Part shown: one piece after another, positions 9,439-25,672 of the stretch
Position numbering within the stretch: position 1 is the first letter of the stretch
Layout of the letters: each line of letters begins with the position of its first letter
Source: a virus
Length of the DNA: 64,000 bases
Direction: 5' to 3' (one strand)
IMG/VR virus record: IMGVR_UViG_3300032325_000432
Span: 6,822 to 70,821 of that record
Position numbers and translations under genes: made by a program
The notes under the pieces: generated by a model
What the model saw: only the letters and a program-made list of their open reading frames with translations
Databases searched by the model: none
What the model was told of the DNA's origin: nothing

Positions 9439-9473
9439 TAGGGCATAACGTCAATCAACACAGGAGATGAGAA

Positions 9474-10159: not shown

Positions 10160-10171
10160 TTGGAACTAATA

Positions 10172-11049: not shown

Positions 11050-11078
11050 TTGACAGTGGTTGGTCGATAGAGTACAAT
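11050..11078 (+). promoter_or_regulatory. sigma70-type promoter of tRNA-Ile
   Basis: TTGACA-17 bp-TACAAT, GTCGATA in spacer, 13 nt before the tRNA. Confidence 0.8.
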
Positions 11079-11091: not shown

Positions 11092-11167
11092 GGGGCGTAA
11101 GGTAAGCCGGTAGCATCCGTCACTCTTATAAGGTGATCATAGGTACGTTCGACTCGTACACGCCCTA
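11092..11167 (+). tRNA. trnI: tRNA-Ile (anticodon UAU)
   Basis: acceptor GGGGCGT/ACGCCCT, anticodon stem TCACT/GGTGA with loop CTTATAA, T arm GTACG-TTCGACT-CGTAC, discriminator A; atypical A8 and D arm; CCA not encoded. Confidence 0.85.
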
Positions 11168-11176
11168 CTTTAATAC

Positions 11177-11428
11177 ATGGATTTGTTTATGAAACTACAA
11201 CCACTAACGGTAATATTTTTAGGATTATTTCTAGCATCATTAGGATTTAACCTATTACAGTTTCAAAACATCAAAAGACTAACTTATCAAATCCAAAAAA
11301 TGGAGGCTGGGCCAGCTAGAGGTTTGTTTCTGCAACCAGAAATGCCAAAATCTCCGATAAGTGATGAAGAATTAAAAGAGTTGATGGAACGAATTCTCAA
11401 GAAAATGAAACAAGAAAGAATGGTGTAG
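11177..11428 (+). CDS. membrane-anchored hypothetical protein
   Basis: N-terminal hydrophobic helix VIFLGLFLASLGFNLL. Confidence 0.6.
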   Translation: MDLFMKLQPLTVIFLGLFLASLGFNLLQFQNIKRLTYQIQKMEAGPARGLFLQPEMPKSPISDEELKELMERILKKMKQERMV

Positions 11429-11437
11429 ATAAAACAC

Positions 11438-11787
11438 GGGCTAGTAAAGGTATCGACAGGTAAAATAGGTATAGATCGCATCGACTGGTTAATCGACCGG
11501 CCAGTTTAAAAGTCGATTAAAATTGTTAATTGGCGAAGTAACTCTCGCTCTCGCTGCCTAATTAGTTAGGTATTGAGTGGGGCGGCATGAGCCTTATTAC
11601 CAAATCATGCTGACTCCGATATTCGGATATGGTAGTCCTACCAGACATAAATAGGAATGATGATTGTACTCAATCTGACGCAGATAACTCTGATAGCTTT
11701 GTTGGTAGTGTGATAACAACCAACTAACGATGTAGAAGTTTATATTGATGTTTATTCTGGACGGCAGTTCGACTCTGCCCTAGTCCA
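11438..11787 (+). ncRNA. ssrA: tmRNA (transfer-messenger RNA)
   Basis: 5' GGGCTAG...GGTATCGAC; 3' GGCAG-TTCGACT-CTGCC-CTAGTCCA with G3-U70; PK1 around 11484-11520; tag frame 11532-11561 GEVTLALAA-stop. Confidence 0.95.
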
Positions 11788-11796
11788 CTTAATATT

Positions 11797-12144
11797 ATGA
11801 GAAAAATTTGTACTTACTGTGGAAAGCGTAAAAACCTAGCAAGTTTTCCCAAGCATAGTATGTACAAAGACAATCTGGATAGCAGATGTAGAAAGTGTGT
11901 TAAGAAACATTCTAAGATACGAGTTAAGCTACATAAAAAAGCCCCCCCAAGACCAGAAGTTTGTGAATGTTGTAAAAAAGTTCCATATAAATGGGCTTTA
12001 GATCATGATCATGATGATAATAGTTTTAGGGGCTGGCTCTGTGAACCTTGCAATACTGGCATAGGTAAACTTGGAGATGATTTTCAGAGTATCGTTAACG
12101 CTATGAATTATTTTCTCTCAAGACAAAAGCGATATGAAAAATAA
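11797..12144 (+). CDS. recombination endonuclease VII-family (HNH-like) nuclease
   Basis: CECC...LDHDH...RGWLCEPCNTGIG plus N-terminal CxxC finger. Confidence 0.85.
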   Translation: MRKICTYCGKRKNLASFPKHSMYKDNLDSRCRKCVKKHSKIRVKLHKKAPPRPEVCECCKKVPYKWALDHDHDDNSFRGWLCEPCNTGIGKLGDDFQSIVNAMNYFLSRQKRYEK

Positions 12145-12349
12145 GATTAGAGAACATCTAACGGAAAATGATATGACGTATTATCAGCACTTTAAATTTG
12201 CTGTATTTTTTGGATGTTTATCTTTAGTTGCTGGGTTTTGTTTAATAGTTCATGCGTTTTTTCCATGCTGGTTTCAAACTTCTGGCAGCGATTTGGTTCA
12301 GTCTATGGCTATCGTGTTTAAGAAACGAAGTCGATTAGACGATACTTGA
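12134..12349 (+). CDS. small membrane protein (DUF6356-like)
   Basis: HL.E..MTYYQHFKFA...VHAFFP pattern. Confidence 0.7.
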   Translation: MKNKIREHLTENDMTYYQHFKFAVFFGCLSLVAGFCLIVHAFFPCWFQTSGSDLVQSMAIVFKKRSRLDDT

Positions 12350-12374
12350 CAGAGGGGCTACCCTATGGTAGAAT
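12346..12374 (+). promoter_or_regulatory. sigma70-type promoter of ligase
   Basis: TTGACA-17 bp-TAGAAT with TG extension; GACGATA immediately upstream. Confidence 0.75.
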
Positions 12375-12399
12375 TGGGACAACACAGGAGAAAATAAAA

Positions 12400-13701
12400 A
12401 TGTCGTTTGAGCATCTTAATGGTTTTGTTCGTGATTTGAAGGCAACCAGCAGCACACTTGATAAGGTTGGAATTATTGAGGATTATACTGCCTCTAATGA
12501 GAGTGGAGCAAACTTTATCAAGAAAATTCTGCTCTATACCTACCATCCTCTTTGGCAATATAATGTGACCAGCGATAATCTTAAAAAGAAAAAGCATCTG
12601 CGTGGTCATGCTTATGATTGTATTTTTAAGCTTTTGGATGATCTAAAGAGTAGGAAGATTACTGGACATGATGCCATTGGAGCAGTAAATACGTTCATTG
12701 ATAACCAAAGAGAATACGAAGAACTCGTCCACTGTATCATTGATAAAGATTTGAAAACCCGTGCTGGAGATAAGCTAATTAATAAGGCTATTCCAGATCA
12801 TATTCCAACATTTAGTGTCGCCCTAGCGGACAAATATGTTCCTAAAATTGTAGACTGGAAGGATGGATGGTATGTTAGCAGAAAGATCGACGGTGCTAGA
12901 TGTATTGCTATTGTTGATGGTAATGGTGATACTACCTTTTATTCCCGCACGGGAAAAAACTTTGATACTCTTGGTGTTGTTGGCGACGGCATTAAAGCTT
13001 TGGGACTTACTAATGTAGTTCTTGATGGTGAGCTTTGTTTGGTTGATGAAGATGGTAACGAGGATTTCCAAGGAGTAATGAAGGAACTTCGTAAGAAGGA
13101 TCATACCATCCCTAATCCATCATATAAGATTTTTGACATGATTACTCATGATGAGTTTTATAGTCAGAAAGGCGAAAAGAATCGACCATTCGGCATTAGG
13201 CTGAAGAATCTCACTGAAATCATGAAGAAGAATGAATGTCCTTGTCTTACACTGTTGGAACAATCTTTGGTGAAGGATGAGAGCCATTTTCAAGAATGGA
13301 TAGCAAAATCTACACAGAATTCTTGGGAAGGATTGATTTTAAGAGCAGACGAACTTTATAAGGGAAAACGATCAAAAGATATGCTTAAATGGAAATCATT
13401 CAATGATGCAGAGTATGTCGTTTCTGATGTTGAGTTTGGGCCATTTAGATATGTCTTGAATGGTCAAGAAAAAGAAGAGGAAATGCTATCTTGTGTTACA
13501 ATTAAACACAAAGGATATAATGTTAGAGTTGGAAGTGGATTTTCAATAGAACAAAGACAATATTTTTACAAAAATCCTAAAGAAATTCTAGGAAAAATTA
13601 TTAGAGTTAATTATTTTGAAGAAACTAACAACCAAGATGGCGGTATTTCATTAAGATTTCCGACGTTGGCTTATATTTATGGTGATAGTAGGGATATTTA
13701 A
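12400..13701 (+). CDS. lig: ATP-dependent DNA ligase
   Basis: KIDGAR (motif I), LDGEL, IFD, WEGLILR, VGSGFS, SLRFP; AGGAG RBS before ATG 12400. Confidence 0.95.
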   Translation: MSFEHLNGFVRDLKATSSTLDKVGIIEDYTASNESGANFIKKILLYTYHPLWQYNVTSDNLKKKKHLRGHAYDCIFKLLDDLKSRKITGHDAIGAVNTFIDNQREYEELVHCIIDKDLKTRAGDKLINKAIPDHIPTFSVALADKYVPKIVDWKDGWYVSRKIDGARCIAIVDGNGDTTFYSRTGKNFDTLGVVGDGIKALGLTNVVLDGELCLVDEDGNEDFQGVMKELRKKDHTIPNPSYKIFDMITHDEFYSQKGEKNRPFGIRLKNLTEIMKKNECPCLTLLEQSLVKDESHFQEWIAKSTQNSWEGLILRADELYKGKRSKDMLKWKSFNDAEYVVSDVEFGPFRYVLNGQEKEEEMLSCVTIKHKGYNVRVGSGFSIEQRQYFYKNPKEILGKIIRVNYFEETNNQDGGISLRFPTLAYIYGDSRDI

Positions 13702-13737
13702 TAGTCCCATTTCATTTTGGTGTAAGTATAATATACT

Positions 13738-14391
13738 ATGAAAAAATGCACAAAATGTCATATAAATAAGTCTTTAAAAGAATTCAATAAAAAACATACA
13801 TCTCCAGATGGTTATAGGACTTATTGCAGGGTTTGTTCTAAGAAATATAACAATGAACGTCAAAAACAAATTATCTATAAAACAGCTTATCAAAAAAGAT
13901 GTCTTAAATGTAATAAAAAAAGACTCACCAAATTTTTTCATAAATGTATACATAATAAAGACGGATGCAATTCTTGGTGTTTAGATTGTGTCTCTTTGTA
14001 TAAAAAAGACTATAATCAAAAAAACAGAAAACATAGAAATAAATATTTAAAAAATAGATTAAAACAAAATCCTTCTTTAAGATTAATCAAAAACTATAGA
14101 ACGAGAATTGGCATAGCATTTAAAAATTCTAATAAATCAAAATCAACAGAGCAATTATTGGGTTGTTCATTAGAGTATTTTCAAAATCATATAATCAATC
14201 AATTCAATAAAGACATGACGATAGAAAATTATGGGAAATGGCATATTGATCATATAATTCCTATTAGTTCTGCTAAATCAAAGAAAGAATTAGAGCAATT
14301 ATGTCACTATACAAATTTACAACCATTGTGGGCAATAGACAACATCAAGAAAAGTAATAAGATTCTTCATGGAGAAGAAAGAGACATCTAA
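13738..14391 (+). CDS. HNH homing-type endonuclease
   Basis: two CxxC finger repeats; WHIDHIIP...HYTNLQPLWAIDNIKK; C-terminus mimics the ligase end. Confidence 0.88.
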   Translation: MKKCTKCHINKSLKEFNKKHTSPDGYRTYCRVCSKKYNNERQKQIIYKTAYQKRCLKCNKKRLTKFFHKCIHNKDGCNSWCLDCVSLYKKDYNQKNRKHRNKYLKNRLKQNPSLRLIKNYRTRIGIAFKNSNKSKSTEQLLGCSLEYFQNHIINQFNKDMTIENYGKWHIDHIIPISSAKSKKELEQLCHYTNLQPLWAIDNIKKSNKILHGEERDI

Positions 14392-14446
14392 TTGATCAGT
14401 TTCCGGTATGGTGTATTAAATTGTCCCGCCTTACTGGAGACATTAA

Positions 14447-14857
14447 ATGATCAAAGTTATTCTTCGCTCTATTATATATCCGTGGTTTATTTTATTTGTA
14501 GGATTTTCCATAGGTTTTATCTGTAATTCTGAATGGTTCGGCTGCAAGTATGTTCTTGTAGAAAGATCAGTAAGGAATATATTTTTCCCAATAAAATATG
14601 ATGAACAAGTAGAGCAGTGGGTAAAATCCAATGGACGATTAAGATTGTGGGCTAATTTAGAGTGCCCAGAATATTTTGAAGTTATTCATGAGTTTGTTAA
14701 AGGAGAGGAGCATTACTGGGCTATTTATAAGACCAGAGATAGCAAAGGTAAAGAAATTAAAGACATTGGTAGTGTGAGAGTTAAGTGGAAAACATGGGAA
14801 TACTACTATAAATTAGACGAGATTATAGATAAGTATGGTTCTAGGAAATTAGATTGA
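14447..14857 (+). CDS. membrane-anchored hypothetical protein
   Basis: GGAG RBS, N-terminal TM helix. Confidence 0.65.
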   Translation: MIKVILRSIIYPWFILFVGFSIGFICNSEWFGCKYVLVERSVRNIFFPIKYDEQVEQWVKSNGRLRLWANLECPEYFEVIHEFVKGEEHYWAIYKTRDSKGKEIKDIGSVRVKWKTWEYYYKLDEIIDKYGSRKLD

Positions 14858-14872
14858 TTCAAGATGCGGGGC

Positions 14873-14901
14873 TTGACAAGACGATAGGACTAGTGTAGAA
14901 T
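14873..14901 (+). promoter_or_regulatory. sigma70-type promoter with GACGATA box
   Basis: TTGACA-17 bp-TAGAAT. Confidence 0.8.
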
Positions 14902-14938
14902 CGCAGTATACACTTTGGAACTAACTTTTGAGGACACT

Positions 14939-15637
14939 ATGACAGAGATTGTTGTTGAGAAAAAGCCGATTGTGATGAGTACGAGCAAAGCCGATGAGTT
15001 TTTCAAGAATTTCCCCAAGGATAAGGTAGTAGCATATAAGGACTATTGGGAGAGTGTTCGTCCTAAGACCGATGAAGATATTTTCCGTCGCTATCTCTTT
15101 GCATATTGCTCCGTTCATACAACTTGGCAAGGCAATGTCAAGGGATATAATGCTATCAAGAATTTTAGCGAGTGGCTGGACAGTAAAGAAATTCTTTTGG
15201 AGAAACTTCACAAGAGCGGCGTTGGTCTGCACAATAATCGTACCAATTACATCTGGGATTTTAGCACCAAGTTTTGGGCCAACCCTAAAGACTTTTATCT
15301 GACCACTAAGAAGTATCATGTTAAGAAACGAGACAGTATTCTTACTAAGATTAGTGGTATTGGTCTTGCTAAAATTAGCTTTGCTCTTGAGATGATTCAT
15401 CCTAATGAGGCAAGAGTATTGTGTGGAGACATTCATCAGCTTAGACTTTACGATGTTGAGGCTCTTAAATATAATAAGAGTAAGGTTGGGTCACAGACTT
15501 ATAAAAAGATGGAGCGGCACTGGATGGTTAACTGCGGCAAGTTGAAAGTACCATCTTATGTAGCAAGGTCGATCTATTGGGATGATCTTCAAAAGAAGGA
15601 AGATAGTCGCTACTGGAGTTATGTTCTGGAGAGTTAA
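14939..15637 (+). CDS. HhH-GPD superfamily DNA glycosylase/AP lyase-like protein
   Basis: ISGIGLAKISFAL helix-hairpin-helix followed by VLCGDIH (catalytic Asp position). Confidence 0.7.
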   Translation: MTEIVVEKKPIVMSTSKADEFFKNFPKDKVVAYKDYWESVRPKTDEDIFRRYLFAYCSVHTTWQGNVKGYNAIKNFSEWLDSKEILLEKLHKSGVGLHNNRTNYIWDFSTKFWANPKDFYLTTKKYHVKKRDSILTKISGIGLAKISFALEMIHPNEARVLCGDIHQLRLYDVEALKYNKSKVGSQTYKKMERHWMVNCGKLKVPSYVARSIYWDDLQKKEDSRYWSYVLES

Positions 15638-15639
15638 TC

Positions 15640-15765
15640 ATGCAGAATGGTAAGGGTTCTAAAAGGCGAGAGAGTTTGGTTTCTCAAGAGACTTGGGACA
15701 AAAACTACGAAAGAATTTTTAGAAAGAAAAAAGATGGGAAGCGTAACAAATCTAAAAGAAAATAA
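15640..15765 (+). CDS. small basic phage protein (41 aa)
   Basis: translated by hand: MQNGKGSKRR...WDKNYERIF; GGAG RBS. Confidence 0.6.
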   Translation: MQNGKGSKRRESLVSQETWDKNYERIFRKKKDGKRNKSKRK

Positions 15766-16012
15766 GACACTGTTTATTCCGTGTTCTTGTAAGAGCGAGA
15801 TTTTAGTAATTGAATATGATCATGAAATAGATATAGCTGATCTGGCAATATTTGAACATTATACAAATTATAGCAATAAGATGTCATTTTGGCAGAGACT
15901 ACGATATTGTTTTCAGGTTTTGGTACATAAAAAGCCTTATGCTGATCAGATGGTACTAGATAAAAAACAACTCAAAGATTTGCAAAAATTCCTAAATGAA
16001 CTTAACTTATAA
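15734..16012 (+). CDS. hypothetical protein
   Basis: start moved to MGSV; FIPCSC...FWQRLRYC pattern. Confidence 0.65.
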   Translation: MGSVTNLKENKTLFIPCSCKSEILVIEYDHEIDIADLAIFEHYTNYSNKMSFWQRLRYCFQVLVHKKPYADQMVLDKKQLKDLQKFLNELNL

Positions 16013-16060
16013 GGTGTATATTATAAGGTTGTCAAAAAATTCATACCAAGGAGGCTAATC

Positions 16061-16276
16061 ATGGTTGTCAGAACAGAGACAGAATACATGAACGATCAAT
16101 TAGCTAACAGAGTTAAGTCTCTTCAAAAAGCTTTAAATCAAGCTGAAACAATAATGAATACCCTTGAGTCAGAAAATCAAAGACTAAAAGACGTTCTTGC
16201 TAACCTAGCGTCAGAAAATAATGAAGGTTACATTCTCGATAGCGAGTCCTTTAATGAGCCAGTGTTTACAGTCTAA
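16061..16276 (+). CDS. coiled-coil hypothetical protein
   Basis: AAGGAGG RBS; GGTGTA motif at 16013. Confidence 0.7.
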   Translation: MVVRTETEYMNDQLANRVKSLQKALNQAETIMNTLESENQRLKDVLANLASENNEGYILDSESFNEPVFTV

Positions 16277-16535
16277 GAATAAGAACAAAAGAATAATAAC
16301 ACAAATTGGTGAATATGAATACTTGATTGAGGGTGAAAGCGATTGGGCGAAATTCTGTTGTGAGTCAGATATTTCAGTAATAACTTCTGCTAATTTAGAT
16401 GGTGGGCCATTCCTATTAATTGGTGATTCTTTTTTAGGCAAGGGCAGAATATCATCTATGCAGAATATTGACAGTGGGCGAGATGGGTATATAATAATTA
16501 AGGTTACTCTATACTCACCAAAGGAAAAATCATGA
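16254..16535 (+). CDS. hypothetical protein
   Basis: YLIEGES...LDGGPFL pattern. Confidence 0.6.
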   Translation: MSQCLQSKNKNKRIITQIGEYEYLIEGESDWAKFCCESDISVITSANLDGGPFLLIGDSFLGKGRISSMQNIDSGRDGYIIIKVTLYSPKEKS

Positions 16536-16654
16536 TACCAGAACTAGCTACCGTTGTCGGATACTATCAAGCAATGTTAATCTCTGGATATAACGAATAT
16601 CAAATTCAACAAATTATTAAGGGGTCTACCTATGAGCCAACTTCACAAGAGTAA
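16532..16654 (+). CDS. small hypothetical protein (40 aa)
   Basis: AAGGA RBS, ATGA overlap; translated by hand. Confidence 0.4.
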   Translation: MIPELATVVGYYQAMLISGYNEYQIQQIIKGSTYEPTSQE

Positions 16655-16820
16655 TAAGAACAGAGTTTTCTTGGGAGTGTGTGGGGGATTATCAGAAAGT
16701 CTAGGTCTAGATGTTTCTGTAGTAAGACTAGGATTTGTTGCTGGAGCTATCTTTACTGGTAGTATTCTTTTTTGGGTATATCTGCTTTTAGCTCTTGTTT
16801 TACCAACACAAGATAACTAG
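16632..16820 (+). CDS. PspC-domain membrane protein
   Basis: LHKS..NRVFLGVCGGLSE.LG.D...VRL followed by a TM helix. Confidence 0.85.
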   Translation: MSQLHKSNKNRVFLGVCGGLSESLGLDVSVVRLGFVAGAIFTGSILFWVYLLLALVLPTQDN

Positions 16821-16954
16821 TATCAGTATTTTCCTATCTTCTCCAGTTGTTCTTCCAACTGTGATCAATCGACCAGTAATATCTCCTACTTGGTCGATTT
16901 GGTGTATTTTATTCTGATAGATTGACCAATATCTTATCAGGAATACTAATTACC

Positions 16955-17428
16955 ATGAGTACTAGAATAAAAACCATCATTGTTTTTGGTCTTATTTTAC
17001 TTCTGGTATACAAAGAATATCGACCCCAAAATATCCCTACCATAATAGACAAGATACCAAAGATAGTTGTTCCAGATCTTAAAGACAACATAGTATATGA
17101 TGATTTAAATAAAAGTATAGAGTTAGCTTCTAAGCATAATAGAAAAGTATTGATTATTTTTGGTGCTGATTGGTGTCCGTATTGTAAGACATTAAAAAAA
17201 GATATCTCCTCATTGTTTATTCAAAAATATGTAGTTTCTATTATAGACATAGATAAAAATTCTGATATTGTGGACGAGTTTAAAATAAAAGGACTTCCCA
17301 CTTCCGTTGTGGTAGACTCCAATAAGAAAGAACTTGCAAGAAACATAGGATATAAAAAACAAGAATATGAAGATTGGTTAAAACAAAATATCACAGATCT
17401 TAGTGCGTCATGGATAGATACAAAGTAA
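16955..17428 (+). CDS. membrane-anchored thioredoxin-family protein
   Basis: FGADWCPYC and GLPT motifs; N-terminal hydrophobic segment. Confidence 0.85.
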   Translation: MSTRIKTIIVFGLILLLVYKEYRPQNIPTIIDKIPKIVVPDLKDNIVYDDLNKSIELASKHNRKVLIIFGADWCPYCKTLKKDISSLFIQKYVVSIIDIDKNSDIVDEFKIKGLPTSVVVDSNKKELARNIGYKKQEYEDWLKQNITDLSASWIDTK

Positions 17429-18270
17429 TTACCATACTATTTTTATGCACAACACTACTTTTTGACTCTACCGGAGTAGCTAATGACTATCATTTCGTCT
17501 TTAATAAGGTATATAACGTGAGATATTCCGCCAAATCAAGAGTTATATCTGTCGGCTTAAGACTTTTCGATTTAAAAAAACATAGAGACTTGATGCCAAA
17601 AGATACTGTGTATAATGAAGTGTTATCATACTCAGAAGAAGTTCCTTTTGGAGATGAACACGGTAGAAGCACTAATGTACATGAAACAGTTCATGGAATA
17701 AATGCTGCTATAAGAAACAAATATAAGATTATGCTCAAAAAAAATCTTAATGGTTTCTATGCTGGTGCTGGCAAAGGAATACTAGTTGAAAATCCTCCTC
17801 TTAAAATAAGAGATATCATACCGTTTATACCAGAAGTTGTGAGAGGATATAGATACAACCTATATTTTGTAAAACAACTAGGAGACTGGAATGATACTCC
17901 TACTTATCCGATGGATGAATGGTCTGCATATATAGCTGGAGCTGAATGTGCAGTCGATGATGCTATTAGAGATATTCGACTCAAAGAAAAAAGCGATAGC
18001 GTATCTGGAGCATTAGAGTTTAGTATCTATTGTTCTGCATTAGCTTTAGCAGTTAAAACTAAGTGTAAAGATTACTGGGATAATAATGAACAATTCAAAA
18101 ATGTAATTAAATACTATTTGATAAAATCAGAAAAAGCATTCTTTGAAGGACAAGAATTATTCCCCTCTCCTAAACAGGATTTATTATTGTTTCATCTAAG
18201 AGAACACAAAGACGCAGCGGAACTTCGTAATTTTTTATTGCTAGAATTTGATGGCATTTTTGTAGACTAA
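17410..18270 (+). CDS. secreted HExxH protein, possible metallopeptidase
   Basis: signal-like N-terminus, VHETVHGIN, downstream DEWSAY. Confidence 0.6.
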   Translation: MDRYKVITILFLCTTLLFDSTGVANDYHFVFNKVYNVRYSAKSRVISVGLRLFDLKKHRDLMPKDTVYNEVLSYSEEVPFGDEHGRSTNVHETVHGINAAIRNKYKIMLKKNLNGFYAGAGKGILVENPPLKIRDIIPFIPEVVRGYRYNLYFVKQLGDWNDTPTYPMDEWSAYIAGAECAVDDAIRDIRLKEKSDSVSGALEFSIYCSALALAVKTKCKDYWDNNEQFKNVIKYYLIKSEKAFFEGQELFPSPKQDLLLFHLREHKDAAELRNFLLLEFDGIFVD

Positions 18271-18429
18271 CATATCAAAACGAGCCTAGTCGCTTTTAGA
18301 GAACGCTCTTATTGATGCGTAGCAATGACCACAAACGGACTTTTAAATAGGATACTGCGTCGATACACTCCTTCTAAATGGAACGAGAATACGTTTTTGG
18401 TTGCCTCATTTTTTTTTCAAGTGCGTCTA

Positions 18430-18458
18430 TTGACATAGCCGATACCACAGAGTACAAT
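18430..18458 (+). promoter_or_regulatory. sigma70-type promoter with GCCGATA box
   Basis: TTGACA-17 bp-TACAAT. Confidence 0.82.
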
Positions 18459-18535
18459 GAAAGTGTTGATCAGGTATGATCGGTCGCGTGACCGAAACTG
18501 ACAACTAAATGAGGTTTAGTTTTTGGAGGTGATTT

Positions 18536-18817
18536 ATGGCAGAGGTTACTACTACAGAGAAGCAGAGTCGTGTTCGTTGCAGTGATGATCAGTTCCTTGA
18601 GGCAGTTTTTTCCAGCAAGACTTATGCTGAGATTGCGTCAAAGACGGGTCAGAAGGTTGCTAGTACGATGGCTCGTTATGCTCGTACAAAGGAGGCTCTC
18701 AAGACCAAGGGTGTTGAACTTCCCGCTATGGAACGAGCAAAGCCAGTTAAGACTGTTGATAATGTCGAGGCTATGGCTGATATTGTCCGTCGAATCAAGG
18801 CTCATACGAACTCTTGA
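18536..18817 (+). CDS. small basic HTH-like DNA-binding protein
   Basis: TYAEIASKTGQKVASTMARY helix-turn-helix pattern; GGAGGTGA RBS; two leader hairpins (about 18480-18520). Confidence 0.7.
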   Translation: MAEVTTTEKQSRVRCSDDQFLEAVFSSKTYAEIASKTGQKVASTMARYARTKEALKTKGVELPAMERAKPVKTVDNVEAMADIVRRIKAHTNS

Positions 18818-18830
18818 TTCTGATCCTAAA

Positions 18831-18917
18831 TGCTTCCAACTACATCCCTCGTAAACATTATTAGAGACAACATAGATAACAATCTAATTAATCGTTACGA
18901 TATGTAGCTTGGAAGTA
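18831..18917 (+). other. long imperfect inverted repeat (stem-loop) upstream of tRNA-Leu
   Basis: GCTTCCAA-CTACAT...TCGTAA...TTAGA pairs with TCTAA...TTACGA...ATGTAG-C-TTGGAAGT. Confidence 0.7.
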
Positions 18918-18920
18918 TAT

Positions 18921-19200
18921 GGGGCTTTGGCGAAATAGGCAGACGCAAGGGACTTATACAATTTGAGTGCTTAAGGAGAAATCTTTAAAGTAGAACCTGT
19001 CAAAGTCGGTGAACCTTTTAAAATGGGAATACCGAGCCAAGCATAGAAATATGAAGGTGTAGAGACTTGACGGCAGGAACCTAAAGTAATAACTATGGTT
19101 AAGGTAAAGTCCAGACTACAAACAGAAATGGTAACGAAAGTTATAGTAGTAAGAAAATCCCTCGGAGAAATCCATGTGGGTTCGACCCCCACAAGCCCCA
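18921..19200 (+). tRNA. trnL: tRNA-Leu (UAA) interrupted by a group I intron (exons 18921-18955 and 19154-19200)
   Basis: acceptor GGGGCTT/AAGCCCC; spliced anticodon arm AGGGA-CTTAAAA-TCCCT; long variable arm; T arm GTGGG-TTCGACC-CCCAC. Confidence 0.93.
18956..19153 (+). mobile_element. group I intron (198 nt, no ORF), trnL-UAA type
   Basis: exon U before 5' splice site with P1 ACTT/GAGT; P/Q AAGTCGGTGAA and AATACCGAGCCAAGC; R GTGTAGAGACT; S AAGGTAAAGTCCA; terminal G. Confidence 0.9.
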
Positions 19201-19248
19201 CTATTTATTTTTTCCACGATAATTATCAGTTGCAGGATATAAAATCTT

Positions 19249-19479
19249 ATGACATTTGACCAATGGCTCAATGAAATCGAAGGATATAGTGTTAGGCACG
19301 AAAGAGCTATGAGCGACATAAGAAATTGTGTTGCAAAAGGAGAAACTGACGATATAATTAAATGGTTGATGGCAGCTTATGCTATGGGCCACGAACAAGG
19401 TTATAATACTGGATATTATGACTCTAATGAAGATTGCAAAGAACAACTTGATGAATACCGAATGGGCGATGACTTTTAA
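19249..19479 (+). CDS. hypothetical protein
   Basis: TFDQWLNEIEGYSVRHER pattern. Confidence 0.7.
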   Translation: MTFDQWLNEIEGYSVRHERAMSDIRNCVAKGETDDIIKWLMAAYAMGHEQGYNTGYYDSNEDCKEQLDEYRMGDDF

Positions 19480-19493
19480 CCAAAGGATATATA

Positions 19494-19709
19494 ATGACAA
19501 AAAGTTCTCTTGATCTATATAAGGTTGGTAGTAGAGTAAAGTTGACTGATGATGTTGACGGAACTATTACTGGAATAAATATTAGCTCTAATAATACTGT
19601 TATTTATGAGTGTGGTTGGTGGAATGGTCGCTCTTATACCAAAGATCATTTTAATGCAGAGCAAATAGAAGCAACAGTTGCAGATAAAGTTCGTATCGGA
19701 TTTGCATGA
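19494..19709 (+). CDS. small beta-barrel hypothetical protein
   Basis: AAGGA RBS; KVGSRVKL...YECGWW. Confidence 0.65.
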   Translation: MTKSSLDLYKVGSRVKLTDDVDGTITGINISSNNTVIYECGWWNGRSYTKDHFNAEQIEATVADKVRIGFA

Positions 19710-20002
19710 TAGAAGAATATGAAAACTGGGAAGATAACATAAGAAAAACCTTTATAGAACTGGCAACTTATATGGACAAAAATTCTGATCCTCTTGAAAG
19801 CATTATTGATTTTGCCTGGGCAAGTGGTGCTGATCTTTTCTTTGTTCAAAACGCTAAGGATGAACTTAAAAGACTAAAAGAGAAAAATAAGGAATGGGCT
19901 GCGGAAGTTTATAGAGCTAATGAATTTGCTGTTGAACAAACTAACGAATATCTAAAAATATCCCAGCAGATGCAGACTTTAAAAAATTCTCTTGAGTCCT
20001 GA
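19706..20002 (+). CDS. hypothetical protein
   Basis: ATGA overlap. Confidence 0.65.
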   Translation: MIEEYENWEDNIRKTFIELATYMDKNSDPLESIIDFAWASGADLFFVQNAKDELKRLKEKNKEWAAEVYRANEFAVEQTNEYLKISQQMQTLKNSLES

Positions 20003-20013
20003 TAGGAAAAATC

Positions 20014-20334
20014 ATGGGTAATACTTTATGCAATGGCAGAGTTAAGAATAATAATCCTAAGTCCCCTATAGAATATTTCTTACTCGTAACAGTAAGAGAA
20101 TATAGTGACTATGAGGGAGGTACTTATATAGATGAAGTCAGAACTGCCGCAGAATTCTTAGAAAAAGACAAAGACGCTTATGATGACCCTTTTTATCAGA
20201 TATATGGATCAGTACCAGTTGATATTGATGGGCTGCCAACAACTGTTTTTCTTGGCGAGTTTTACTCAATAGATAAGGCAAGAAATTTTTTGTATAATCT
20301 TACTGGTGAAGTTCCACAGATTATCTCTTATTGA
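20014..20334 (+). CDS. hypothetical protein
   Basis: AGGA RBS. Confidence 0.65.
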   Translation: MGNTLCNGRVKNNNPKSPIEYFLLVTVREYSDYEGGTYIDEVRTAAEFLEKDKDAYDDPFYQIYGSVPVDIDGLPTTVFLGEFYSIDKARNFLYNLTGEVPQIISY

Positions 20335-20335
20335 T

Positions 20336-20860
20336 ATGGTAAGCTCAAAATATAAAATTGATCTATCTGACTACTATAGTGCTGATGGTGGATATTGTAC
20401 TCTTTTTAAGATATCTAATCAGCCATTTATAGGATTTAAGGAGTTTATCTCTAAAGCCAGAGCGGAATACGCCAGAAAAATTCAGCTTAAATTAAGTAAG
20501 CATGATCTGGCTCCTAAAGTATGCTCTGAATTATGTAAGATGGGCTATGAGCCACTATTTACTCATCAAATAAGCGGTTGGGGATACGTTACAGAATTAG
20601 CTAAACCCACCAATACAAATATACAATTATGGAGAATACAGGGTCTAGTCGATAATATTTTTGATAGAACAAAGCTAAAATTTTGGGACTGTCATTCGGC
20701 TAATCTTGGATATATTGTAAGAGAAGGAAAGAATAAGCTAGTTTGTATTGATACTGGTAAAGAAACGTGGGATGGATATTCTAATTATTTTGGAAACTCT
20801 GATCCTGGCCCAAAGTGTTCATATTGTTTAAAATATCAATGTAAGTGTGAAGGAATTTAA
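20336..20860 (+). CDS. minimal protein-kinase-like protein
   Basis: GG loop, GFKEF Lys, LAPKV, WDCHSANLG catalytic loop, CIDTG; C-terminal Cys cluster. Confidence 0.65.
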   Translation: MVSSKYKIDLSDYYSADGGYCTLFKISNQPFIGFKEFISKARAEYARKIQLKLSKHDLAPKVCSELCKMGYEPLFTHQISGWGYVTELAKPTNTNIQLWRIQGLVDNIFDRTKLKFWDCHSANLGYIVREGKNKLVCIDTGKETWDGYSNYFGNSDPGPKCSYCLKYQCKCEGI

Positions 20861-20861
20861 A

Positions 20862-21215
20862 ATGCCATATATTAAAGAAGATCGTAGAAAAGGTCTGGAT
20901 GAATGTATAGACGTAATGGTAAAATGTCTGAAGAGTAATGTGCCAAATGACAATATTAAAAATCCTTGGTCTGATCCTCAAAATAGAGGAATATCAAATC
21001 AGGAATTACTTGATATTTGTGGAGACATTAATTATACTTTTAGTCGTATTTTAGGGGGTGTTATGGGAGATATTTCATACCCTAAGATTGCTGTGATTAC
21101 TGGTGTATTAGAGAATATCAAGCAAGAATTTTATCGTCGAGTAGCAGTACCATATGAAAACCAAAAGATAAACGAGAATGGCGATATCAGAGAATATAAA
21201 TTACTAAAAGAATAA
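20862..21215 (+). CDS. conserved phage hypothetical protein (MPYIK family)
   Basis: MPYIK...GDINY...GVLE..KQEFYRR..PYE..KI..NGD. Confidence 0.75.
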   Translation: MPYIKEDRRKGLDECIDVMVKCLKSNVPNDNIKNPWSDPQNRGISNQELLDICGDINYTFSRILGGVMGDISYPKIAVITGVLENIKQEFYRRVAVPYENQKINENGDIREYKLLKE

Positions 21216-21227
21216 AGAAAGAAACAT

Positions 21228-21536
21228 ATGTCTCGTGATTTTGACAACATCATTAAAGAAATAGTTAAAAACAATAAAGAGCTAGATAAAATGGATGATA
21301 AAATATCTAAAAATATCTCCGGTCTAGAAAAAGATATCGCTATAATTAAGAAAGATATGAAAACCATTTCTTCTAAACTAGATGGTATTTTTGATATGCT
21401 AAGTAGTCTTTCTGTTTTTATAGAAGATGCTGAGAATATCGTATCAGAAGATGAAGAAGAATATACATCTAATGAGGGATGGTTGCCAGAGCTTAATAAG
21501 TGGGAAAACGAACAAGATGATGAGGACGAGGATTAA
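21228..21536 (+). CDS. coiled-coil protein with acidic tail
   Basis: ORF track. Confidence 0.65.
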   Translation: MSRDFDNIIKEIVKNNKELDKMDDKISKNISGLEKDIAIIKKDMKTISSKLDGIFDMLSSLSVFIEDAENIVSEDEEEYTSNEGWLPELNKWENEQDDEDED

Positions 21537-21787
21537 TGGCTAGTTTAGCTCTAATAGTAACGATTATTTTTTTATCTGTACTAATCATAGGGCCATTAAG
21601 TTACATATTATCTTTGTTTGATTGGATGCCAAAGTTTGTTGTATGGATTATGGGATTACTCTGCATACTGGTAGGAGGTCTGACATTCGCTTTGCCAGTG
21701 GTCTTTTTAAAAGTTTTGGGTCTGATAGACATAGCCATTGGGTTTAAAATAATCTCAGACAGACAACAAAAGAAAAGTGGTGCTTGA
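21536..21787 (+). CDS. membrane protein (about 3 TM)
   Basis: highly hydrophobic; TAATG overlap. Confidence 0.7.
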   Translation: MASLALIVTIIFLSVLIIGPLSYILSLFDWMPKFVVWIMGLLCILVGGLTFALPVVFLKVLGLIDIAIGFKIISDRQQKKSGA

Positions 21788-21812
21788 CAAGATGATTTGC
21801 CGATGGTATACT
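21784..21812 (+). promoter_or_regulatory. sigma70-type promoter of rIIA with GCCGAT box
   Basis: TTGACA-17 bp-TATACT with TG extension. Confidence 0.82.
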
Positions 21813-21852
21813 TGAGCCATCACAGGAACGATAACACTTTTGGAGAATACAG

Positions 21853-24528
21853 ATGAAGTTGGCAGATAGGACGATTGAGACTCACAGCGTTGGAGTTGCA
21901 AGTAGGAATCAGTTCAATATTGCTCAGACGAGCAAGATGTTTAAAATCCTTTCAGACTCTCTTTATTCTGATAAGGTTATGGCTGCGATTCGTGAGCTTT
22001 CTACTAATGCTTATGATAGCCATATCTCTGCCGGGAATAAGAATCCCTTCAAGGTTACTCTGCCCACTGCTGCTAATCCTACCTTTATGGTGAGGGATTA
22101 TGGTACTGGTCTTAGTCAGGAAGATATGGAGGACTTGTATACCACTTATGGTGCTTCCAACAAGAATGATAGTAACGATTTTGTTGGTTGTCTTGGTCTA
22201 GGGTCTAAGAGTCCCTTCGCATATACCAAGAGTTTTACCACCGCATCATATTATAACGGTAAGAAGTATACTTATATTGCGGCGATTGACGAGAGTGGTG
22301 TTCCTACGCTGAATCTTTTCAATACTTCTAATACGTCTGAACCTAATGGTCTTGAGATTAGTTTTGCTGTTAAGCAGCATGACTTTCAAGAGTTTACAGA
22401 CAAGGCTAAGAGAATCTTCCACTATTTCCGTATGAAACCCATCCTTGAAGGTGGTATCGGGAATAATCTGCAAGATCATAAGTATAGCAATACTAATATC
22501 ATCATTAGTGGTGAAGGTTGGAGGGTTTGCCGACTCAACAATGATAATAACTATTTCCCTAATGGGTATCATCGAATTGATAGTGGTATTGTAGCTATCA
22601 TGGGTAATATCGCCTATCCTGTTCAGACCGCACAGATTGTTGGTCAAGAGAAGGATGAGATGCCCGATCATATCCAGAAGTGGAATAGAGCTTTCCAGAA
22701 AGCAGATATTGATTCTTGGAAGAGCTTTGTGGGAGAGATTCTCAACTCCGGTCTTTATCTTGAGCTTGATTTTGGTATCGGTGAACTGGAAATGGACGTT
22801 TCCCGTGAAGGTTTGCAGTATACTAAGGACGTTATCAAGACTCTTCGTAAAAAGACCCAAGAAATTTACATGGAGATGAAGGAAGAATTCTCCAAAAAGA
22901 TTAAGTCTGCCCAGAATAAGGTAGAAGCAATTACTTCATACTATACTATGAATGAATTGGCTGGCGGCTGGGGTGTTGGTGCAACTTGGACTGATCCAAA
23001 GGGCAAAGATCATCCTATCAACTCTGGCAATGACTTGGAATATAAAATTCCTGCCGGTAAGAGTCTGTACGTTTTTAATTATAAGACTGCTGGCTATCGT
23101 TCTCGTCGCCAAGTTGCTCTCACAGATAGAATCCATCACGAAACCCTGACTGGTAAAGGTTCCTACTATTGGAATAACCAGAAGAAGAAGGGTAAGATGA
23201 GTTTCTTTGTGTGCGATGTTGCTAGTGAAGAAAGCGCCAAGAAGATTCTTACAAGGTTTTGTAATGCGAACGATTGCTTTGCTTATCTGATGATCGACAC
23301 TAAGGATCATACAAAAAGCAATGAGGGTTTTGATCAACTGGTCGAAGATGTTGGTGCTGAAAATCTGCTCAAGGTTTCAGACTATAAGCATCTGACACAA
23401 AGTTCTGGCCCAAGAAAGTCTTACAATAGAAATTCTAATGGTAGCGTTAGTGATCAAGATGTATTCTTTATCCACGGATATGATAAGGATAGTAAGCAGA
23501 TTACTAATCCCTATAATGATGCTACGCATCTAAGAATTCTTTCAGAAGAACAACTGGAGAACTTTCTGGAACAAGATGAGATTATTTTTGTTCCCATGTT
23601 GAGATATGGAACGGAACCTGAGTCTGGTTGTCCAGAGATTGCTGGTATTACTAGAACTCTCCAAGAAGATACTCTAAAGAGCATAACCAAGGACTTGATT
23701 GGTAATAGTAAGATTTATGCTATCAAAAAAGCTTTCCTTACAAAGCTTGAGAAAGATGGTTACAATCTTATTAATTTCAACGACTTTTTGAAGCGTCAAC
23801 TCAAAGTTGTGGCACAAAAGCACTTTAAGAATCTTGCTTCTATTAACAAGCTTGTTGAATATTGCAAGAAGGACTATGCTACAGAAGAAAAGACTGGTGG
23901 TGGATATAGATATTATCAGCACGGAACAACAGATAAGCAGTTTATGTTTCATATTCTGAATATCTTTGGTCTAGATTATGACAAGTTTATTAACAACAAG
24001 AACCTTGTGGACTGTTTGAATAAGACCATGCTCACAGAGTTCTTTGCTTACACTGTTCATGTCGCTCCTTTTAATATTCCACGATTTAGCCAAACAGAAT
24101 ATCTTTCGCATATCTCTAAGCTTATGAAAGAGGTAGGGATTGATAATGTGGACGGCAAGGAAATTCGTAACGCTAATTTGGCTTATAATACCTTGACGAA
24201 CATGATTGTTAATTACTTGTATTCTGGTAATAATAATGCAGAGGCTTATCTGAAGATTATTCGTGGAACTTCTGAGGAAGATTTGAAGAGGTGGAAAATC
24301 TCTGAGATTAGGGAGAAGATTAAGACTGAGGTAGACAAGAACCCTATGCTCAAGGTTATTATGGGAAATCATCAAGTGTCAGGTAATCTGGTAGATCTTA
24401 AATCTAATCAGAATCCTATCATTGAAGATCGCTCATACTATGGAAAGCAGAGCAGGGATTGGATTGAGCAGATGAGTCAGGAGAATATTGACCTATTTAA
24501 GATTCAGTTGAGCAGTTTGATTAAGTAG
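21853..24528 (+). CDS. rIIA: RIIA-like protein (GHKL ATPase N-terminus)
   Basis: ILSDSLYSDK...IRELSTNAYD, RDYGTG, GCLGLGSKSPFAY, SREGLQY; followed by rIIB. Confidence 0.9.
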   Translation: MKLADRTIETHSVGVASRNQFNIAQTSKMFKILSDSLYSDKVMAAIRELSTNAYDSHISAGNKNPFKVTLPTAANPTFMVRDYGTGLSQEDMEDLYTTYGASNKNDSNDFVGCLGLGSKSPFAYTKSFTTASYYNGKKYTYIAAIDESGVPTLNLFNTSNTSEPNGLEISFAVKQHDFQEFTDKAKRIFHYFRMKPILEGGIGNNLQDHKYSNTNIIISGEGWRVCRLNNDNNYFPNGYHRIDSGIVAIMGNIAYPVQTAQIVGQEKDEMPDHIQKWNRAFQKADIDSWKSFVGEILNSGLYLELDFGIGELEMDVSREGLQYTKDVIKTLRKKTQEIYMEMKEEFSKKIKSAQNKVEAITSYYTMNELAGGWGVGATWTDPKGKDHPINSGNDLEYKIPAGKSLYVFNYKTAGYRSRRQVALTDRIHHETLTGKGSYYWNNQKKKGKMSFFVCDVASEESAKKILTRFCNANDCFAYLMIDTKDHTKSNEGFDQLVEDVGAENLLKVSDYKHLTQSSGPRKSYNRNSNGSVSDQDVFFIHGYDKDSKQITNPYNDATHLRILSEEQLENFLEQDEIIFVPMLRYGTEPESGCPEIAGITRTLQEDTLKSITKDLIGNSKIYAIKKAFLTKLEKDGYNLINFNDFLKRQLKVVAQKHFKNLASINKLVEYCKKDYATEEKTGGGYRYYQHGTTDKQFMFHILNIFGLDYDKFINNKNLVDCLNKTMLTEFFAYTVHVAPFNIPRFSQTEYLSHISKLMKEVGIDNVDGKEIRNANLAYNTLTNMIVNYLYSGNNNAEAYLKIIRGTSEEDLKRWKISEIREKIKTEVDKNPMLKVIMGNHQVSGNLVDLKSNQNPIIEDRSYYGKQSRDWIEQMSQENIDLFKIQLSSLIK

Positions 24529-24549
24529 TCTGGAATTGTTCAAGACCCC

Positions 24550-24577
24550 TTGACAAGTTTGCCGATTAGTGTAAAAT
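24550..24577 (+). promoter_or_regulatory. sigma70-type promoter of rIIB with GCCGAT box
   Basis: TTGACA-16 bp-TAAAAT. Confidence 0.78.
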
Positions 24578-24623
24578 GACAGTATCACAGGTATCGTAAC
24601 TAAAAATATTAGGAGTTTGGATT

Positions 24624-25505
24624 ATGGCTGTTCCGTTTATGTTTGTCGATGGTAATTTGACGCTGGTTCTTAACAACCAGAGTTATCAGGTGTTGCCAGA
24701 TCATATCAACTATAAGTTGATTCTGGAAAGACTCCCTACTGCTACGGCAGAGGAACTGTTGGAAGTTGTTGATGTTCAAAAGGCTGTTGCTACTTTCAGC
24801 GATGGTCTTGTGGAGATCAAGAATGGACAGGTTCTTTATGAGGGAGAGGAAGTACATGGTAGTATCAGCAAGCGTATTCTGGAGTTTATGAGCAAGGGAT
24901 TGCCGTTTCAGCCCCTTGTTAATTTCCTGAATAATCTCATGGAAAATCCAAGTATGCAGAGTCAGAAGGAACTGTATGATTTCTTGGAGCATGAGCATCT
25001 ACCTATCACTGAGGATGGTTTCTTCCTCGCTTATAAGGCTGTTCGTTCAGACTTTAAAGATAAGTACAGAGGAGTTTTTGACAACAGGGTTGGTCAGGTC
25101 TGCCAAATGCAACGAGCAAAGGTAGACGATGATCGTGGTCGTGGTTGTTCTAATGGACTTCATGCTGGAGCATTGAATTATGTTGCTGGCTATGGTAGTC
25201 TGGAGGCTGGCGACCGCATCGTTATCGTCAAGATTAATCCCAAGGATGTTGTGAGTGTTCCTAGCGATTGTAACTATGAAAAGCTCCGCACTTGTCGCTA
25301 CGAAGTAGTTGGTGAGTATGAGGGTGAATTGCTCAAGCCTCTTTATAAGGCTGATTTTAGTCAGGACGATTACGAAGATGATGACGATGATTATCTGAAT
25401 GACTACGATGAAAGCTATTGGGATCAGTTCGATGATGAGGACGAGGATGAGGACGAGGATGAGATGGATGACGAAGATGTGGACAATAATGGTTTCTATA
25501 GGTAA
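24624..25505 (+). CDS. rIIB: RIIB-like protein
   Basis: NPS...ELYDFL...PITEDG.FLAYK, CSNGLH, VKINPKDVVSVP.D..KLRTCRYEV; long acidic tail. Confidence 0.92.
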   Translation: MAVPFMFVDGNLTLVLNNQSYQVLPDHINYKLILERLPTATAEELLEVVDVQKAVATFSDGLVEIKNGQVLYEGEEVHGSISKRILEFMSKGLPFQPLVNFLNNLMENPSMQSQKELYDFLEHEHLPITEDGFFLAYKAVRSDFKDKYRGVFDNRVGQVCQMQRAKVDDDRGRGCSNGLHAGALNYVAGYGSLEAGDRIVIVKINPKDVVSVPSDCNYEKLRTCRYEVVGEYEGELLKPLYKADFSQDDYEDDDDDYLNDYDESYWDQFDDEDEDEDEDEMDDEDVDNNGFYR

Positions 25506-25512
25506 GTAGACA

Positions 25513-25594: not shown

Positions 25595-25672
25595 TTAAGA
25601 TATTGCTTTTGATGGTAGTGTTTACTGTCCCAATATCAAAATTGTAGGTAGGAAGTGGAAAAAGGAAAACAA

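Follow-up and report, generated by a model that had tools for sequence, protein, structure and literature searches.

In Streptomyces, the tRNA-Leu encoded by bldA (anticodon UAA) gates genes that contain TTA, a codon that is rare there and present in few regulators, and the tRNA itself accumulates late. For phage T4, the 1991 paper by Cowe and Sharp (J Mol Evol 33:13) reportedly tied codon usage to the time of expression, in a phage with eight tRNAs of its own, and Mioduser, Goz and Tuller are said to have described early-versus-late codon bias in phages in 2017. Passages of a study of Shigella phage Sf14 treat codon usage by temporal class, with phage tRNAs that fit the later, AT-rich genes (PMC12482277), sections of a report on T4-like cyanophages describe phage tRNAs that serve late genes (PMC3152331), and the recoding of stop codons in phages has, in parts of one preprint, been proposed to regulate late or lytic genes (bioRxiv 10.1101/2021.08.26.457843). 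Here we analyse a stretch of 64,000 nucleotides (the window) that covers bases 6822-70821 of a viral contig of 70,821 bp, from an uncultured freshwater phage (IMG/VR record IMGVR_UViG_3300032325_000432), in which the genes directly behind sigma-70-type promoters are nearly free of the Ile codon ATA and the Leu codon TTA, and which carries predicted tRNA genes for both codons. An earlier, sequence-only reading of this DNA had proposed a codon-gated switch between early and late genes. The case is a much sharper instance of the known time-dependent codon usage, defined by promoters and conserved in a clade, and no new kind of system.

T4 (NC_000866), which we ran through the same scripts, contains according to ARAGORN tRNAs for Arg (UCU), Thr (UGU), Ser (UGA), Pro (UGG), Gly (UCC), Leu (UAA) and Gln (UUG), and one with anticodon CAU, which we take to be the ATA-reading Ile tRNA. 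Its rIIB gene has ATA at 0/21 Ile codons and TTA at 0/18 Leu codons, gp39 has 1/47 and 2/33, and the minus strand (early and middle genes) as a whole uses ATA for 13.5% of Ile and TTA for 33% of Leu, versus 22.3% and 47% on the mostly late plus strand. The two phages are alike in having a tRNA set of the same kind, a similar GC content (35%) and an early bias in the same direction, and here, as in T4, the phage has tRNAs for codons used more often in the presumed later genes than in the early ones. The contrast between classes is, however, far weaker in T4, compared with about 5% versus 35-44% here, a comparison that is rough since the class definitions differ, and T4 rIIA still has TTA at 14 of its 48 Leu codons. 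Unlike T4, the phage of the window has an Ile tRNA with anticodon UAU, a Leu tRNA that can hold a predicted group I intron, and a transfer-messenger RNA (tmRNA). The Sf14, T4-like cyanophage and Mioduser studies class genes by annotation or measured timing, whereas here the class is set by a promoter motif and the split is near-absolute for two codons. With bldA the window shares one dedicated tRNA and the lack of TTA in the genes needed first (rIIA 0/66, rIIB 0/28, a DNA glycosylase gene 0/18); it differs in that TTA accounts for 31-40% of Leu and ATA for 35-44% of Ile codons in the bulk of the genes, and in that the cognate tRNA genes appear to lie behind early promoters, with none placed late or separately. 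As in stop-codon recoding, a phage tRNA reads a codon enriched in later genes, but in recoding that codon is a host stop and the block is absolute, whereas sense codons are concerned here, which the host presumably reads slowly.

Early-type promoters were defined as TTGACA-N16-18-TAnnnT, without reference to codons. The motif occurs 19 times on the plus strand of the contig and once on its minus strand, and lies directly upstream of every gene that the sequence-only reading had named as depleted and of the tRNA-Ile gene. In a complete relative of 238,135 bp (G001), there are 46 sites on the plus strand, 41 of them between 113 and 173 kb, and 6 on the minus strand. This clustering of sigma-70-type promoters on one strand was used for the inferred timing, by which the genes behind them are probably early genes. 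The promoters concerned agree with the consensus in 10-12 of its 12 positions; together with the genes behind them they are:

3487..3515, plus strand: early-type promoter, TTGACA-17-TATAAT, 12/12, upstream of UvdE
3535..4446, plus strand: UvdE UV endonuclease (PF03851, E 2.8e-41); ATA 2/19, TTA 3/28
6739..6767, plus strand: early-type promoter
6807..7022, plus strand: small promoter-proximal open reading frame (ORF); ATA 0/3, TTA 0/7
9411..9438, plus strand: early-type promoter with CCGATA in the spacer
9474..9878, plus strand: protein of 134 amino acids (aa) with no assigned family; ATA 0/9, TTA 0/3
10095..10122, plus strand: early-type promoter
10160..10543, plus strand: promoter-proximal ORF; ATA 1/11, TTA 2/10
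12346..12374, plus strand: early-type promoter, overlapping the TTG with which the long ligase ORF begins
12400..13701, plus strand: ATP-dependent DNA ligase (PF01068, PF14743, phrog_114)
14873..14901, plus strand: early-type promoter
14915..15637, plus strand: Ogg-HhH-like DNA glycosylase (PF22175, E 1.8e-7); ATA 0/13, TTA 0/18
18430..18458, plus strand: early-type promoter, upstream of ORF 18536 and of tRNA-Leu
18536..18817, plus strand: ORF of 93 aa with a weak sigma-70 region 4-like match; ATA 0/3, TTA 0/3
21784..21812, plus strand: early-type promoter with a TG-extended -10 element
21853..24528, plus strand: rIIA (phrog_612, E 1.3e-111); ATA 1/65, TTA 0/66, P 1e-22
24550..24577, plus strand: early-type promoter
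24624..25505, plus strand: rIIB (phrog_609, E 1.2e-71); ATA 0/9, TTA 0/28
25655..26812, plus strand: protein of 385 aa directly after rIIB, without a TTGACA promoter of its own; ATA 0/23, TTA 3/21

For a comparison of promoter classes, genes were called by amino-acid composition, which is independent of synonymous codon choice, and a gene was taken as promoter-proximal when it was the first within 200 nt downstream of a promoter site. On the contig, the 13 promoter-proximal genes use ATA at 11 of 190 Ile codons and TTA at 13 of 223 Leu codons, compared with 19/51 and 7/31 in the 5 genes next in line and 522/1176 and 339/1079 in the 74 others. G001 gives 12/231 and 7/289 for its 24 proximal genes, 16/63 and 12/64 for 5 genes next in line and 1398/3960 and 1616/4004 for the remaining 155. 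At the gene level, the difference is highly significant by Mann-Whitney test on the contig (P 6e-7), in G001 (P 5e-11) and within the early region of G001 by itself (P 2e-6), so that the split between promoter classes, previously seen by eye, proved very strong in both. The depletion is also graded: up to 300 nt from the nearest upstream promoter, ATA stands at 7-9% and TTA at 6%, and both rise smoothly to about 30-40% beyond 2.5-4 kb. Small promoter-proximal ORFs to which no function is assigned follow the class, with a median ATA plus TTA share of 0.014 in 19 genes, and six of the eight genes of G001 that pass Bonferroni correction are promoter-proximal, only one being a late gene.

Gene by gene, the contrast is equally apparent. 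Across 129 ORFs of the contig, ATA makes up 39% of Ile and TTA 28% of Leu codons, and five of them pass Bonferroni correction for ATA/TTA depletion. The genes named in the sequence-only reading are indeed almost free of both codons, as seen in rIIA, rIIB and the Ogg-like gene. Its further observation that the 5' part of the ligase gene lacks them also holds: the long ligase ORF (12346-13701) has ATA at 3/35 and TTA at 2/38, the true start is the ATG at 12400, which has AGGAG ahead of it, and the coding sequence from there contains two ATA and two TTA codons, all at ORF codons 319-436. ORF 18536-18817 has by itself too few Ile and Leu codons to count. The HNH, glycosylation and virion-type genes that it had described as rich in ATA and TTA are at or above the contig average, with 10/24 and 10/27 in the glycosyltransferase gene at 36637-37923, 18/31 and 11/27 in that at 47119-48180, and 13/32 and 7/27, the bulk level, in a tail-like gene at 56180-57619. 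The HNH gene is listed separately:

13738..14391, plus strand: HNH / endonuclease VII-like gene (phrog_1035), GC 0.25; ATA 7/18, TTA 11/17, not depleted

It lies directly 3' of the ligase gene and of a terminator-like hairpin (13691-13708), and is probably a mobile insertion. Opposite the depleted genes, the minus strand contains long antisense ORFs (22246-22860, 22936-23337, 23971-24375, 25047-25568, 14921-15436 and 9438-9863), because the avoided codons TTA, CTA and TCA read as stops on the other strand; in G001, a length-based ORF picker took such an antisense shadow in place of the real gene (129311-130408). False ORFs of this origin can mislead gene callers.

The depletion was tested against base composition. 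In a logistic control on the A content (A3) and GC content (GC3) of third positions in the other codon families, rIIA is expected to contain 23.5 ATA and TTA codons and contains one, and the ligase gene is depleted in spite of ordinary GC3 (0.27) and A3 (0.43). With the base composition of third positions at four-fold sites as the yardstick, early genes have an ATA share of 0.06 where 0.29 is expected and a TTA/(TTA+TTG) share of 0.22 where 0.73 is expected, while in the bulk ATA is at or below expectation (0.44 observed, 0.44 expected). GC3 or A3 as the whole cause is excluded, since both controls leave strong depletion. Avoidance of a motif, such as the TA dinucleotide or AT-rich sequence in general, is likewise out, as the ratio of depleted to remaining genes is 0.07 for ATA in frame but 0.82 and 0.50 out of frame, and 0.13 for TTA in frame but 1.12 and 1.33 out of frame, with TA at codon junctions barely lowered. 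The limitation to the reading frame, together with the composition controls, indicates a bias at the level of codons rather than a sequence motif or a mutational effect. The check that had been suggested, of ATA and TTA against promoter class under control for GC3, thus leaves the split in place, at codon level and, as described below, conserved.

The source contig is, according to CheckV, 51% complete. A scan of IMG/VR yielded 80 related loci with 59-98% identity to the rIIA protein of the window, several of them on contigs of 200-238 kb with terminal repeats that CheckV rates as complete, and the source contig is collinear with 143-196 kb of G001. Judging by these large complete relatives and by the collinearity, the window is a piece of a jumbo phage, whose genome we estimate at roughly 200-240 kb. 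No close cultured relative emerged: a nucleotide search of a phage collection returned just one match region, of 234 nt, and protein searches with rIIA and rIIB gave best matches of about 40% identity at most.

In the 78 of the 80 loci in which the rIIA ORF was labelled, the orthologues contain 1-6 ATA and 0-6 TTA codons, down to 59% identity, and the genes that flank them use ATA at about 40% and TTA at about 35%. Orthologues of rIIB, of the ligase, of the Ogg-like gene and of the 385 aa gene are depleted alike in the related loci, and so are, in every identity band, the promoter-proximal ORFs of the relatives beyond these five named orthologues; even at 59-63% identity, these other proximal ORFs have ATA at 8/121 and TTA at 16/145, versus 849/1921 and 750/1678 for the rest. 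As the depletion is kept across the clade next to AT-rich flanks, recent import is ruled out as its cause.

ATA and TTA are the extremes of a wider shift away from codons ending in A. From the remaining genes to the depleted ones, AAA falls from 0.72 to 0.34 of Lys and AGA from 0.66 to 0.31 of Arg codons, GGA, CAA, GTA, CCA and ACA are reduced about two-fold, TTA about 8-fold and ATA about 12-fold. This depleted set was picked by its own ATA and TTA content, and the independent controls were added for that reason. Promoter-proximal genes of the contig and of G001 show the same tendency, with ATA, TTA, AGA, AAA, GGA, CAA, ACA and GAA all lower (log2 -0.29 to -3.9), and tRNAs with anticodons matching these codons are present in G001 and four further complete relatives (G002-G005), those for Ile and Leu also in the window. 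The statement of the sequence-only reading that the phage tRNAs supply just these two codons turned out to be an edge effect, as complete relatives each have 9-13 tRNAs, most of them for A-ending codons: Arg UCU, Thr UGU, Gln UUG, Asn GUU, Ser ACU or GCU, Ile UAU, Trp CCA, Glu UUC, Lys UUU, Gly UCC, Asp GUC and Tyr GUA, and Leu UAA near rIIA. By synteny, their cluster would lie about 8-17 kb beyond the start of the source contig, among early-type promoters, such as those predicted in G001 at 123920, 126922, 127051, 128134 and 128442. The phage is predicted to decode most A-ending codons of the two-codon boxes, the class that the early genes avoid. CTA, GTA, CCA and TCA, which end in A and for which there is no phage tRNA, are avoided about equally, and the match between tRNAs and avoided codons is therefore general, not codon by codon. 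Within this inventory, the tRNA-Ser of several relatives has, according to ARAGORN, the unusual anticodon ACU with an unmodified-looking A34 (L081 3584-3673, L082 4799-4888, L083 6900-6987, L085 1463-1549), in place of which L084 has GCU.

The RNA genes of the window are the following:

11050..11078, plus strand: early-type promoter, its -10 element ending 14 nt before tRNA-Ile
11092..11168, plus strand: tRNA-Ile, anticodon UAU, reading ATA (ARAGORN)
11438..11790, plus strand: tmRNA (Rfam RF00023, 84.5 bits against a cut-off of 47, full model)
18921..18955, plus strand: 5' exon of tRNA-Leu(UAA), ending at U34 (alignment to intron-less homologues)
18956..19153, plus strand: candidate group I intron of 198 nt in the anticodon loop (Rfam RF00028 and alignment gap)
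19154..19201, plus strand: 3' exon of tRNA-Leu(UAA) (alignment to intron-less homologues)

Both tRNAs lie downstream of early-type promoters, at 11050 for tRNA-Ile and at 18430 for tRNA-Leu, as had been noted before. The tmRNA, on which ARAGORN made no call, encodes by eye the tag GEVTLALAA followed by a stop; in a related phage, ARAGORN called a copy with the tag GVNQLALAA. tRNA-Ile adjoins the tmRNA in 6 of the 80 related loci and on one contig of a genome bin (G007) described below. In the tRNA-Leu gene, the Rfam match to Intron_gpI (RF00028) spans 18946-19134 and model positions 1-253, with 47.3 bits, slightly short of the gathering score of 50 (E 6.7e-9). ARAGORN calls tRNA-Leu(taa) when 18955 is joined to 19154, yet it returned tRNAs for numerous other junctions too, making this a weak test; since exon joining with ARAGORN is too permissive to place a splice site, we relied on six relatives that have an intron-less tRNA at this locus, and in the alignment with them the 198 nt insertion falls between ...CTT and AAAAT..., which places it after U34 and before A35. 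The predicted intron ends in ...TAAG, after a 5' exon that ends in U. A segment over this intron (18929-19162) accounts for the single nucleotide match mentioned above, with 83.7% identity over 234 nt to LR756501 and LR756503, records of uncultured phages of 735 kb.

The intron is optional, being present at 25 related loci, with 23 others carrying an uninterrupted tRNA-Leu(UAA) according to ARAGORN, and rIIA is depleted equally in relatives with and without it. A tRNA with anticodon UAA is retained at this one locus in 48 relatives, by two clearly different genes: the intron-bearing type, as in the window (18921-19201), has a long variable arm, and the intron-less type, of 73-76 nt, differs in its acceptor stem and has a variable arm that is unusually short for a tRNA-Leu (L001 138-211, L003 6738-6812, L054 6870-6943 and others). 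In the spacer between rIIB and the next gene (25505-25655), a T-arm-like stem (25569-25587) is followed by CCA (…ACGGTTCGATTCCGTTACCA); ARAGORN and Rfam made no call on it, and it might be what remains of a tRNA, or else a tRNA-like element.

Outside the early class, the strongest depletion is found in the candidate major capsid gene of G001 (95953-96963, minus strand), with ATA at 0/15 and TTA at 2/32, in a minus-strand block outside the promoter-dense region. Its identity rests on a PDB profile match to 6wkk_A ('Gp27 major capsid protein', E 1.7e-8) and on Atlas clusters named major capsid; its AlphaFold model has a pLDDT of 31. The candidate matches no Pfam or PHROG family, and searches of G001 for the capsid and sheath families PF05065, PF04984 and PF07068 found none. 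Among 8000 database proteins scored, at least 5275 match it at E <= 1e-5, the top 120 with at least 84% identity. In their deviations from bulk codon use, this gene and the early class correlate with r 0.61, with a common preference for AAG, CGT and GGT, a comparison of one gene in one genome. As it avoids ATA and TTA, a key late product would not have to wait for the tRNAs that read them.

We hold with moderate confidence that the genes translated first, together with the most highly expressed late gene, are tuned to the tRNA pool of the host, and that the phage tRNAs carry translation of the AT-rich bulk. Strong, host-type (sigma-70-like) promoters, densely arrayed, would drive the early region, and the coding sequence nearest to each would presumably be translated first, with host tRNAs alone. 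Purifying selection would act there against A-ending codons, most strongly against ATA and TTA, each of which is read in bacteria by a single, usually minor tRNA. The rest of the genome would be at an AT-rich compositional equilibrium, free to drift given the phage tRNAs, which mostly have U34 (Ile UAU, Leu UAA, Arg UCU, Lys UUU, Glu UUC, Gln UUG, Thr UGU, Gly UCC and others) and would be transcribed from early promoters. A delay of late genes until these tRNAs mature would be a by-product, with no dedicated gate built on two codons. We infer that the host is poor in tRNAs reading ATA and TTA, and that selection on early codons acts via translation; the third positions of early genes in G001 (T 0.43, G 0.23, C 0.17, A 0.17) show a preference for T- and G-ending codons as would be expected if host tRNAs with G34 and C34 were plentiful and those with U34 scarce. 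Since ATA in the bulk is at its compositional expectation, selection would have worked to remove these codons from early genes and not to favour them in late ones. With the tRNA genes placed, like the depleted genes, behind these early promoters, the sequence appears to encode no delay. Several points weigh against this account. The 129 ORFs behind the gene counts are ORF-based calls, not curated genes, and the class is taken as early from the promoter consensus by itself. Some promoter-proximal ORFs, such as 39734-39985 (ATA 1/2, TTA 4/5) and 564-770 (ATA 3/6), are not depleted. Neither of the two genome bins in which rIIA relatives were found fits early-gene codon usage better than bulk usage. 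Finally, the capsid gene keeps CTA (16/32), CCA and ACA, all of which early genes avoid, so that the early and capsid classes have no one common optimum.

A true timer, in which genes with ATA and TTA stay effectively silent until the phage tRNAs have accumulated, the Leu one after splicing, and in which the tmRNA rescues stalled ribosomes, appears rather unlikely to us. It could account for the near-absolute exclusion, a single ATA or TTA among the 131 Ile and Leu codons of rIIA, for a depletion that goes 4-6 fold past the early genes' own A3 level, and for its conservation to 59% identity and gradation with promoter distance; the retention of a UAA tRNA at one locus in 48 relatives by different genes, and the adjacency of tRNA-Ile and tmRNA in 6 of 80 loci and in bin G007, also fit. 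But the tRNA genes share the early promoters, with no built-in delay visible, the intron is optional with the same depletion at the 25 loci with and the 23 without it, bulk ATA equals its compositional expectation, the capsid gene avoids both codons, and the shift takes in almost every A-ending codon and roughly a dozen tRNAs rather than two. Bacteria must also read ATA and TTA in their own genes, so any block would be partial. What stands of the proposed switch is the promoter class, the codon split and its conservation; the early-driven tRNAs, the capsid gene and the lack of selection for ATA or TTA in the bulk speak against the gating itself, and splicing of tRNA-Leu, for which the window does contain a predicted intron, is hardly an essential part of it given that relatives without the intron are depleted to the same degree. 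A clade-wide version, in which some 25-45 immediate-early genes lack ATA and TTA, about 80% of the genome awaits the phage tRNAs as a feed-forward delay and the UAA tRNA is kept by non-orthologous replacement, we regard as no less doubtful. A dedicated gate is possible and gains no specific support.

Selection on expression level alone, by which ATA and TTA are slowest throughout infection and any abundant product avoids them whatever its timing, is another unlikely explanation, though one that would readily cover the G001 capsid gene, as depleted as early genes and with the same preference for AAG, CGT and GGT, the promoters with their 10-12 consensus positions out of 12, and a T4 gene on the mostly late plus strand with ATA at 0/38. 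It does not explain why six of the eight genes passing Bonferroni correction in G001 are promoter-proximal and one late, why small promoter-proximal ORFs are depleted as a class, why the depletion decays with distance inside the same transcription units, or why the structural-looking gene at 56180-57619 remains at bulk level. A defence or shut-off scenario, in which host U34 tRNAs are removed during infection by anticodon nucleases or phage-driven turnover and replaced by phage tRNAs, with the earliest genes avoiding the affected codons, would suit the phage set of mostly U34 tRNAs (Lys, Glu, Gln, Arg, Thr, Gly, Leu, Ile) together with Asn, Asp and Tyr, classes that are targets of known anticodon nucleases. 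An in-frame bias is, however, what ordinary rare-tRNA selection predicts, and we consider this scenario very improbable. The parts of the Sf14 study that bear on phage tRNAs discuss both ideas, and its authors did not, in those parts, favour nuclease escape for their own phage (PMC12482277). Hardly credible, finally, is a recent horizontal transfer that left donor codon usage in rII and DNA repair genes: the somewhat higher GC content of the depleted genes (0.36-0.43 versus about 0.33) and the cellular type of UvdE, ligase and Ogg would fit, but the orthologues are depleted clade-wide to 59% identity with AT-rich flanks each time, the pattern tracks promoters and not gene function, it is frame-specific, and the ligase gene is depleted at ordinary GC3 (0.27) and A3 (0.43). 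Conservation, frame specificity and the promoter-class test largely refute this explanation.

For the host, the clues are few. WhiB and psbA families, searched in the contig (G000) and four complete relatives, gave no match. The two bins with rIIA relatives came from one scan of genome contigs. One belongs to Chitinophagia and uses TTA for 142 of 195 Leu codons in EF-Tu and rpoB together with a further long ORF next to a weaker match to the EF-Tu family, a codon usage that argues against it as the host; the TTGACA/TATAAT promoters of the window, moreover, are presumably not of Bacteroidota type. The tag of the window tmRNA matches, by eye, the length and the GE start of this bin's GEANFAMAA (L108 1537-1874, minus strand; also read by eye). 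The bin G007 (behind L098) contains several jumbo-phage-like contigs (C90 127908-131261, C1 93412-96804 and a 141 kb contig with rIIA) alongside cellular EF-Tu and rpoB, and a phage-like tRNA-Ile(UAU)-tmRNA pair with the tag GVNQLALAA; it is either a mixed bin or one of host and phage.

Further features accompany the promoters. CGAT(A) or (C)CGATA occurs in the spacer of 30 of 56 early-type sites (3487-24577 in the window and 113-173 kb in G001), the -10 element is often TG-extended, and a TTCAAG-like element, seen by eye and not counted, lies about 10 nt upstream of the -35 hexamer; these could be regulator sites or an UP-like element. Many non-early genes have a GGTGTATA motif about 35-45 nt upstream, found in 9 of 117 upstream regions where 0.5 would be expected, with sites at 16014, 48165 and 56088 of the window and, in G001, at 110968, 177860, 196763 and 201646, and on the minus strand at 101235, 95849, 89816 and 76565. 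The motif may belong to middle or late promoters, and the genes behind it have ATA and TTA at bulk levels.

The window represents an unusually clean, motif-defined case of time-dependent codon usage, in an abundant lineage without a cultured member. The contrast for ATA and TTA is about 7-17 fold, conserved and graded along transcription units, which makes this lineage suitable for a direct test of whether phage tRNAs assist translation or set its timing. Used together, the codon signature and the promoter motif flag immediate-early genes in metagenomic contigs of related phages for which there are no expression data. If the timer were true after all, the accumulation of tRNAs would order the infection programme as a feed-forward delay.

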